From: a virus
Strand: one strand, 5' to 3'
Virus genome (UHGV): UHGV-0134101
Length of the DNA stretch: 10,004 bases
Part shown: piece after piece, positions 9,200-9,541 of the stretch
Numbering within the stretch: position 1 is the first letter of the stretch
Layout of the letters: each line of letters starts with the position of its first letter
Position numbers and translations under genes: made by a program
The notes under the pieces: generated by a model
Seen by the model: the letters and a program-made list of their open reading frames with translations, nothing else
Databases searched by the model: none
What the model was told of the DNA's origin: nothing

Positions 9200-9541
9200 A
9201 TGGCAGATAAAAAAACGGCGCCACTACTGCTTAACGTAGACGCCAGCGAGGTACTTACTCAGACCGGGGAGCTTTTAAAGTTACTTGAACTTCCAGCCAG
9301 TTCCTTTCAGGGAATTCCTGAGCATGTCGTCGATCTGTTTTTTGACCGTGTCCGTGGCCTGATTGACAACATCGTCCTTAGTGATTTCTCGACCACAGTC
9401 AGCACAACTGACGCCGGTGAAATTTGTCTCAAAGTCAAAATCATCGGGCTGGTTGAACATCTCACTTCCGCAGTCAGGGCACACGGTCCGCATGGTTTGC
9501 ATGAATATATCCTTTCTACTGTTGGGGAGATTAAAGAGTAA
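9200..9541 (+). CDS. Hypothetical acidic protein, 113 aa
   Basis: ORF track 9194..9541 starts at a GTG; the ATG at 9200 has a GAGGAG Shine-Dalgarno 5 nt upstream. Orientation matches transcription from the pL-like promoter. An antisense ORF with a Zn-ribbon-like motif overlaps it (see findings). Confidence 0.45.
   Translation: MADKKTAPLLLNVDASEVLTQTGELLKLLELPASSFQGIPEHVVDLFFDRVRGLIDNIVLSDFSTTVSTTDAGEICLKVKIIGLVEHLTSAVRAHGPHGLHEYILSTVGEIKE

Follow-up and report, generated by a model that had tools for sequence, protein, structure and literature searches.

A probable pair of antisense overlapping genes in the early-left operon of a lambdoid prophage, conserved across temperate phages of the Enterobacterales

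When two open reading frames (ORFs) occupy opposite strands of the same DNA, is one of them the shadow of the other, or can both be genes? The virus genome UHGV-0134101 poses this question in a stretch of 10,004 nucleotides (nt), hereafter the window, which comes from a lambdoid prophage and spans its immunity and early region. Towards the end of the window, a plus-strand ORF of 113 amino acids (aa) encloses a minus-strand ORF of 73 aa with two CxxC motifs, and a preliminary description based on the letters of the window had thought it likely that just one of them is expressed, with a leaning towards the plus strand. From a comparison of the locus with its relatives we consider it likely, if well short of certain, that the locus is a conserved antisense overlapping gene pair within the early-left (pL) operon, in which both ORFs are genes. 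The comparison shows both frames and both sets of putative translation signals to be maintained by selection across temperate phages of the Enterobacterales. It also shows how the plus frame is apparently accommodated, namely by codon choice: codons that would generate stops are avoided, and rare codons are kept at conserved residues of the plus-strand protein.

Both ORFs have good ribosome-binding sites, as the preliminary description stated, with Shine-Dalgarno (SD) sequences at short distances from their start codons (Table 1). The minus-strand ORF lies wholly inside its partner, of which it covers 222 of 342 nt (65%); an overlap had been rightly noted, and its description as almost complete overstated the extent. 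The two frames are in exact antiparallel codon register, so that codon position 1 on one strand faces position 3 on the other and position 2 faces position 2. At the borders, the CAT codon of plus-strand H101 complements the minus-strand ATG, and the TTA codon of plus-strand L28 complements the minus-strand TAA. The two motifs of the minus-strand protein read C8-P-D-C11-G and C33-A-D-C36-G, i.e., CxxC-x21-CxxC with 20 residues between the pentapeptides rather than the 18 counted earlier, and a C-terminal helix follows them.

As a bare arrangement, a nested antisense ORF is not beyond chance, as judged from ORF counts and codon resampling. The window contains 49 ORFs of 60 aa or more; in a 13-kilobase stretch of a close relative, the annotated features number 21, well under half as many. 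The only sense codons that close a frame in the exact antisense register are TTA, CTA and TCA, and the minus-strand protein has just two leucines and three serines. For the window sequence alone, the plus frame stays open in a fraction of 0.28–0.47 of synonymous codon resamplings. Because openness in a single sequence is within chance, the question must be settled with relatives, and what is beyond chance in the alignments is the conservation of both frames across them. We gathered 106 related loci (5 genome contigs, about 90 viral contigs from IMG/VR, 10 loci reached via the encoded protein and 3 annotated GenBank/RefSeq stretches; numbers beginning with L denote individual loci) and ran the analyses on non-redundant sets. 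Scans of viral contigs with single divergent proteins as queries added few extra loci.

Within the overlap, variation is concentrated at position 1 of the plus-strand codons, which is the third position of the minus-strand codons: mean pairwise differences at plus positions 1, 2 and 3 are 0.40, 0.11 and 0.17. The ratio of non-synonymous to synonymous substitution (dN/dS) is 0.12 in the minus frame and 1.25 in the plus frame. The preliminary description had proposed a strand-wise comparison of synonymous variation, in which a pattern fitting the plus frame alone would mark the minus-strand ORF as an artefact; the outcome was the reverse. Its further suggestion, that the CxxC motifs arose by coincidence from repeated CAGTCAG-containing codons on the plus strand, is contradicted by the synonymous-type variation of the minus frame and by the cysteines themselves. 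All 15 divergent lineages examined have the four cysteines C8, C11, C33 and C36. Of the 19 aligned relatives in which these positions are covered, 18 keep all four, the exception (P0011) having an arginine in place of C8; one other relative, P0015, starts downstream of the first CxxC pair in this alignment. Moreover, the minus-strand ORF is intact at loci where the plus frame is broken (L006/L100, L103, L096 and L105).

The minus-strand protein looks like a zinc ribbon, as was first noticed from its motifs, and profile searches place it among putative zinc-binding proteins. By score (83.3 bits against a cut-off of 37; expect value, E, 7.9e-24; profile positions 4–60 of 60) and by its CxxC...CxxC arrangement it belongs to the ECs_2282 family, NCBIfam NF047912, whose description is silent on an ORF on the opposite strand. 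All 65 related zinc-ribbon clusters that we found are in Enterobacterales. Matches to ribbons of the TFIIB, RpoP, S27e and MqsA types were all below threshold, and sequence searches of the PDB returned chance or generic zinc-finger matches only. An AlphaFold2 model of the protein has a mean predicted local distance difference test score (pLDDT) of 57.6, with short strands around both CxxC motifs.

The zinc-ribbon ORF is furthermore equipped with conserved signals of its own. An AGGA, GGAA or GGGA motif lies 6–12 nt before its ATG in 14 of 14 aligned lineages, and upstream of the gene there is a conserved leader of approximately 115 nt. This leader contains the direct repeat TCCCCAACAG in two copies, the ATG-proximal one of which abuts the SD sequence, and the two copies change together between lineages, reading TTTCCACAGNCAA twice or CCCCAATAG twice. 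Beyond the repeats, two GC-rich stems are interleaved: a1 GCCGGG pairs with a2 CCCGGC and b1 CCACG with b2 CGTGG in the consensus form (as in L049), and the window has CCGCG/CGCG. Reading the lineages by eye, we found compensatory changes in both stems, which suggests a pseudoknot, a set of alternative hairpins or a two-state switch. RNAalifold, applied to MAFFT alignments of the leader, did not recover the interleaved stems and returned essentially no structure because MAFFT misaligns them, so that the stems rest on inspection. Downstream of the gene, a hairpin followed by a run of uridines begins 36 nt after the zinc-ribbon stop codon (39 nt if counted from that codon's first base). The hairpin is found at the same distance in all lineages, usually with the U-run next to it, and shows compensatory changes (GGCAUC/GAUGCC in L099, GGGUAUCG/CGAUACCC in L104). 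Since its G-U pair forms only in minus-strand RNA, we assign the hairpin to the zinc-ribbon gene, of which it is probably the intrinsic terminator.

By these comparative measures the minus-strand ORF is a real gene. That the plus strand alone encodes a protein and the CxxC...CxxC ORF is coincidental, as implied by the annotation of phage HK639 and favoured by the preliminary description, is therefore very improbable. The plus-strand ORF is indeed the longer of the two, runs in the direction of the operon, and is called in HK639 and by many metagenome gene callers. Yet the codon-position pattern of the overlap is the opposite of what a plus-strand gene would produce and already contradicts this explanation, and the invariant cysteines, the strong match to a curated profile, the separate SD sequence, leader and terminator, and the persistence of the minus-strand ORF where the plus frame is broken all stand against it.

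The evidence that the plus-strand ORF is also a gene is clearest where it extends beyond its partner. In each inspected lineage whose start falls at the aligned position, an SD sequence of the GAGG/GGAG type lies 5–10 nt before an in-frame ATG (GTG once). This start lies 22–28 codons beyond the zinc-ribbon stop and is kept even where the DNA further upstream is unrelated. Close to the N-terminus, 'AP...DAS' has the appearance of a protein motif and was rejected as such, being mostly the stem of the terminator hairpin; for that reason the coding test was repeated on the 36 nt that lie outside the hairpin as well as outside the zinc-ribbon ORF. In 17 non-redundant sequences of this short stretch, the plus frame has no stops, compared with 11–26 in each of the other five frames, and indels come in multiples of three only. 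The proportions of synonymous and non-synonymous differences in the plus frame (pS and pN) are 0.77 and 0.40, and none of 500 column shuffles gave a pN/pS as low as the observed 0.52; variability at codon positions 1, 2 and 3 is 0.43, 0.37 and 0.63. Among sequences of the close clade, the variants of region A divide into 16 synonymous and 16 non-synonymous ones in the plus frame, against a ratio of about 1:3 expected under neutrality.

Inside the overlap, the case for selection on the plus frame is indirect and rests on the avoidance of stops and the retention of rare codons. Of 20 lineages sharing less than 85% identity, 14 keep both ORFs and have no plus-frame stop across the zinc-ribbon gene, and these include lineages of 44–46% identity in quite different genomic contexts (L097/L098, L099 and L104). 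With lineages treated as independent, the probability of this openness is 4e-4 under the codon usage of E. coli and 6e-8 under that of the phage itself. Among 90 leucine and serine codons there is not a single TTA, CTA or TCA; in the phage's own genes such codons make up 18% of those for leucine and 25% of those for serine. Four residues of the zinc-ribbon protein retain particular codons opposite plus-strand residues: P19 is CCC in 13 of 15 lineages (plus-strand Gly83), R62 is AGG or CGG in 11 of 12 (Pro40), R38 is AGA or CGA in 10 of 15 (Ser64) and G67 is GGA in 9 of 13 (Ser35), unlike the remaining four-fold degenerate sites of the gene, which are scrambled. In addition, one column reads NTC in 15 of 15 lineages, so that the zinc-ribbon residue varies among L, I, F and V and the plus-strand residue is always E or D. 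A codon-resampling null gave a z of about 10 for identity in the plus frame, a value that we discount as two-fold degenerate sites show residual shared ancestry.

The predicted plus-strand protein forms a recognizable family. A profile built from it retrieved 34 clusters (at 50% identity) among 1.84 billion representatives, mostly of 95–115 aa, with D14 invariant and L28 and R93 almost invariant. Its conserved core spans approximately residues 1–100. The window protein matches phrog_29546 with an E of 2.5e-4, as do 17 of 22 family members (best 7.9e-13); searches of Pfam and NCBIfam found no domain in it. AlphaFold2, with an alignment of 20 sequences, predicts an α/β fold (pLDDT 84.4, predicted template modelling score 0.70) with a strand at residues 10–14, helices at 16–29 and 41–56, strands at 63–68 and 74–81, and then a long helix; the N-terminal strand, encoded outside the overlap, is placed alongside the two strands encoded within it. 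A role as an N- or Nun-like antiterminator was considered and dropped, as the protein has no arginine-rich motif and a separate N gene precedes it in L099 and L102.

The main alternative, and the view embodied in NCBI annotation, is that the zinc-ribbon gene alone is functional and the plus-strand ORF is a long shadow ORF, picked by gene callers because it is longer and conserved because the zinc-ribbon gene and the hairpin impose conservation on it. A number of observations favour this alternative and weigh against a pair of genes. By the standard measure there is no purifying selection on the plus frame in the overlap, and of the 30 changes that 39 distinct close variants show in the overlap, 20 alter the plus-strand protein and leave the zinc-ribbon protein as it is, with only four doing the reverse. 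Each conserved plus-strand position in the overlap mirrors a conserved position of the zinc ribbon, the hairpin accounts at least in part for the N-terminal AP...DA, and the prokaryotic annotation pipeline of NCBI (PGAP) treats the plus-strand ORF as non-coding. The plus frame is broken in 6 of the 20 lineages, with one to three internal stops in L096, L103, L006 and L105 and with breaks confined to the first few zinc-ribbon codons in L095 and L004, and none of the six has lost the zinc-ribbon gene. Long shadow ORFs also arise more easily in the exact antisense register than in any other, and the zinc-ribbon protein is poor in leucine and serine. The P-values for the avoidance of stops and for the retained rare codons treat the lineages as independent and are inflated by shared ancestry, since two-fold degenerate sites show that synonymous positions are not fully saturated. 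As for the predicted structure, the five plus-strand models scatter in pLDDT from 84 to 49 on an alignment of only 20 sequences, and the fold matched nothing known in structure comparison. Finally, promoter scans found no sigma-70 promoter conserved in position for the zinc-ribbon gene.

What a lone zinc-ribbon gene leaves unexplained is nevertheless considerable: the conserved plus-strand SD-ATG beyond the zinc-ribbon stop, the coding-type pattern without stops or frameshifts in the 36 nt outside both that ORF and the hairpin, the retention of the rarest proline and arginine codons at particular sites, the total absence of TTA, CTA and TCA, the constant co-orientation of the plus-strand ORF with its operon, and the confident α/β model. 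Shadow ORFs share the codon register and are likewise closed only by these three sense codons. They are not expected to have conserved start signals, a coding signature outside the overlap and site-specific synonymous constraint, and the plus-strand ORF has all three. Judged by its conserved SD-ATG, its coding signature and an openness far above expectation, the plus-strand ORF is not a mere shadow ORF, and we rate the explanation by the zinc-ribbon gene alone as unlikely, while regarding it as the principal competitor of the gene pair.

A further explanation would grant translation of the plus-strand ORF and place its value in the act of translation or in the first ~27 residues, with the part encoded in the overlap being functionless. 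Translation could, for example, serve to keep the pL transcript occupied by ribosomes, to open the hairpin embedded in the ORF or to influence antisense pairing with zinc-ribbon messenger RNA (mRNA). Selection is indeed clear for the start signals, the openness and the N-terminal segment, the overlap appears neutral-like by the standard measure, and the tail of the protein (residues 102–113) is unconserved, missing in type II lineages, and has a dN/dS of 1.4. Against this, the rare codons opposite Gly83, Pro40, Ser64 and Ser35 point to constraint on individual residues, and the predicted strands from the N-terminal and overlap-encoded parts are consistent with a single domain. Translation would also not be needed against polarity, because transcription is probably antiterminated (by the put-like element or N, see below). 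We consider this explanation improbable, and slightly more so than that of a lone zinc-ribbon gene.

In our preferred reading, by contrast, both ORFs are probably genes, because the plus-strand ORF bears signatures of selection independent of its partner (start signals, coding pattern outside the overlap, stop avoidance, synonymous constraint and predicted fold) beside a real zinc-ribbon gene. The earlier expectation that only one of the two is expressed is thus not supported. The pair is conserved across many genera of Enterobacterales, down to 44% identity for the zinc-ribbon protein and 25–30% for the plus-strand protein. In every context examined, the plus-strand ORF has the orientation of the genes around it and takes up the space between them: it comes after putL in HK639 and after an N gene in L102 and L099, lies between Bro-N and baseplate genes in L097, and belongs to other operons in L104 and L106. 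The zinc-ribbon gene, in turn, is alone on its strand in the window, HK639, L097, L099, L102, L104 and L106. Each gene also occurs intact where its partner is broken, the zinc-ribbon gene at the loci named above and the plus-strand ORF in L106. At the latter locus (positions 2501–2764 of Salmonella enterica contig AADTGY010000038.1), the first zinc-ribbon motif is CPDGG, with the second cysteine lost, and the frame reads past the usual stop, while the plus-strand homologue is intact with 118 open codons (MKENTSRKAPLLLRIDASDV...). As this is a single genome, the change in the zinc-ribbon gene could be a pseudogene or a sequencing error.

The position of the pair in the window connects it with the lysis-lysogeny decision. 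We identify the sigma-70 promoter upstream of the plus-strand ORF as pL, firing in the plus direction, because two copies of the palindrome TAACCATTGGTTA flank it and another lies between the repressor gene and the Cro-like gene. The preliminary description had placed the plus-strand ORF in the direction of a pL-like promoter, and this agrees both with the operators and with the record of phage HK639 (NC_016158), in which the same ORF directly follows features annotated as 'putative pL' and 'putL-like antiterminator RNA'. The ORF is the first of the pL early-left operon in the window, so that pL transcription passes through it and runs antisense across the zinc-ribbon gene. Immediately upstream, a stretch that ends at the start of the plus-strand ORF is homologous to the 3′ part of the putL-like RNA of HK639. 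Its identity as a put element is based on the annotation of NC_016158, and a search of Rfam gave no family match for it.

Expression of the two genes is probably mutually exclusive, because they are transcribed convergently. When pL fires upon induction or infection, transcription that is probably antiterminated, by the put-like RNA in the window and by N in L099 and L102, would run antisense through the zinc-ribbon gene, silencing it by polymerase collision or double-stranded RNA, and the plus-strand protein (~100–113 aa) would be translated from its own SD-ATG in the pL operon. With pL repressed in the lysogen, the zinc-ribbon gene could be expressed from its own SD-ATG behind the conserved structured leader, and the terminator within the first 15 codons of the plus-strand ORF would keep its transcript out of the pL and immunity region. 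Our leading guess for the zinc-ribbon protein is an accessory or defence role in the lysogen that is switched off on induction. The defence part of this guess derives from a weak relationship to the PADLOC profile PDC-M14A, which is only a lead: the window protein matches profile positions 20–90 of 152 with an E of 6.3e-6, and 13 of 20 members of the zinc-ribbon family match it, the best with 5.4e-8.

Protein-coding genes that overlap in antisense are known, though few have been documented, and in bacteria and phages, pairs that are fully nested, deeply conserved and show evidence of selection on both frames are rare and their reality is disputed. Described bacterial cases include laoB, pop, asa and ano of E. 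coli O157:H7 and long antisense genes of Pseudomonas aeruginosa (PMC5810103, PMC7103648, PMC6294744, PMC5960689, PMC9927249, PMC8850804; reviewed in PMC7457138). The present pair resembles them in that an ORF is embedded antisense to another, annotation pipelines keep one of the two, and both frames show evidence of constraint. Most of the known cases are young genes that arose by overprinting an older one, and they come with expression data, whereas the pair described here is recognized by sequence comparison. It further differs from those cases in being conserved as a pair across many genera with conserved translation signals for each partner, in that the embedded rather than the embedding gene dominates selection in the overlap, and in having the terminator of one gene within the coding part of its partner.

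A further parallel is the antisense pair Tha/Ith in a noncontiguous operon of the Staphylococcus aureus prophage 80alpha, for which defence and inhibitor functions, promoters and transcripts have been demonstrated (PMC11087260). There, too, a prophage gene lies antisense within an operon controlled by the lysis-lysogeny switch and the expression states are mutually exclusive (PMC11087260), and the feature of an antisense gene flanked by operon genes is also found here. Unlike in Tha/Ith, the polarity at our locus is reversed, with the operon being the lytic pL operon, no zinc-ribbon promoter was found in our scans, and there is no sequence relationship. It is conceivable, though we think it doubtful, that the two proteins make up an ancient module whose parts evolved together on complementary strands and which is coupled to the lysis-lysogeny switch. 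The zinc ribbon would then be an accessory or defence factor of the lysogen and its pL-made partner would replace or counteract it in the manner of Tha/Ith, with terminator and leader doubling as coding or regulatory sequence of the partner. If mutually exclusive expression is true, the locus would be a case of an antisense-coupled accessory gene at the lambdoid lysis-lysogeny switch. Because HK639 is a cultivable E. coli phage, the pair would also provide a clean and experimentally tractable example. Literature searches for ECs_2282, NF047912, PDC-M14 and HK639_45 retrieved no description of the pair.

Existing annotation of the locus is in systematic conflict. In E. coli genomes carrying the locus, PGAP annotates the minus strand only, as 'ECs_2282 family putative zinc-binding protein'. 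The GenBank/RefSeq record of HK639, 98% identical to the window over positions 9147–9622, has the plus-strand ORF only, as HK639_45, and metagenome gene callers mostly call the plus-strand ORF as well. PGAP and NCBIfam thus keep the minus-strand gene and phage annotators and PHROGs the plus-strand gene, and each resource therefore loses one probable protein family. In E. coli genomes (loci L001 and L107), the lengths assigned by PGAP to the zinc-ribbon protein are themselves inconsistent (59 aa in EC09, 150 aa in ABWA45); other genomes have 109–198 aa, and across the related clusters the range is 73–198 aa. The 59-aa call in EC09 starts at an internal methionine and loses the first CxxC motif, and in the window the frame upstream of the ATG happens to be open, for 164 codons from the TTG at 9775. 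The conserved SD-ATG indicates a true length of 73–76 aa.

Table 1 Coordinates of the overlapping ORFs, their putative signals and other features of the window
Feature	Position	Strand	Remarks
Plus-strand ORF, 113 aa	9200-9541	+	ATG 9200, TAA 9539-9541; hypothetical protein HK639_45 in HK639
SD sequence GAGGAG of plus-strand ORF	9189-9194	+	5 nt before ATG 9200
Zinc-ribbon ORF, 73 aa plus stop	9502-9281	-	ECs_2282 family; ATG 9502, stop 9283-9281
SD sequence AAGGA of zinc-ribbon ORF	9514-9510	-	7 nt before ATG 9502
Direct repeat TCCCCAACAG, two copies	9528-9519, 9562-9553	-	in zinc-ribbon leader; 34 nt apart
Two interleaved GC-rich stems	9574-9606		order a1-b1-a2-b2; 5′ of zinc-ribbon leader repeats, 3′ of plus-strand ORF stop
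Hairpin GGCGUC..GGCGCC then U7, probable terminator	9209-9244	-	centroid fold; inside plus-strand codons 4-15 (KK..AP...DA)
Stretch coding on plus strand only, 36 nt	9245-9280	+	plus-strand codons 16-27; between zinc-ribbon stop and terminator hairpin
LexA/cI-type repressor gene	6378-7154	+	
Cro-like gene	6048-6293	-	
pL promoter TTGACT-17-AATAAT, sigma-70	8626-8654	+	flanked by two TAACCATTGGTTA operator palindromes
Operators TAACCATTGGTTA of pL	8613-8625, 8637-8649		whole pL region 8613-8654
Third operator copy TAACCATTGGTTA	6372-6384		between cI-like and cro-like genes
Homology to 3′ part of HK639 'putL-like antiterminator RNA'	9147-9203	+	ends at plus-strand ORF start
Gene for 194-aa protein and overlapping YafO-family toxin gene	7271-8265	+	3′ of repressor, position of lambda rexAB; toxin Pfam E 3e-16
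Strong terminator	8264-8285		after YafO-family toxin gene
Next pL gene, 62 aa	9761-9949	+	
Bacterial 16S ribosomal RNA fragment, 47 nt	9635-9681	+	between plus-strand ORF and next pL gene
Element CCGCATCAGCGGGTAAC, two copies	9728-9744, 9950-9966	+	exact, 17 nt; hairpin CCGC-ATCA-GCGG

Names of ORFs in the window were taken from the annotation of a near-identical copy in an E. coli genome, from which the window differs in its replication genes. Its minus strand carries, besides the Cro-like gene, a YdaT-domain gene and further early-right ORFs. Downstream of the repressor, the 194-aa protein and the overlapping YafO-family toxin could be a toxin-antitoxin or defence cassette expressed in the lysogen.

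The leader between pL and the plus-strand ORF is 546 nt long in the window and approximately 190 nt in HK639. About 45 nt after pL, from 8655 on, are homologous to the corresponding leader of HK639, the next ~450 nt, up to 9146, are unrelated to it, and homology returns at 9147; the greater length is thus due to the unrelated stretch within 8655–9146.

Beyond the plus-strand ORF, the next gene of the pL operon encodes a protein that matches phrog_19863 (E 5e-44) and has two CxxC pairs of its own (CQFC...CIPC). The intervening DNA contains a fragment of bacterial 16S ribosomal RNA corresponding to positions 237–283 of the Rfam family SSU_rRNA_bacteria (32 bits, E 3e-7), with 95% identity to a Salmonella 16S record. 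Only some lineages of the overlapping-ORF locus carry this fragment, and unrelated phages that infect Streptomyces, Shewanella, Klebsiella and Yersinia have near-identical stretches of 40–60 nt. In the same part of the operon, the element CCGCATCAGCGGGTAAC occurs twice, each copy lying 16–20 nt 5′ of the SD-ATG of a pL-operon gene; none of 200 shuffles contained it. It may be a processing, nut-like or translational element. The element is present in 44 of the 106 related loci, always on the strand of the plus-strand ORF, and in L002 it stands immediately before the plus-strand ORF homologue.

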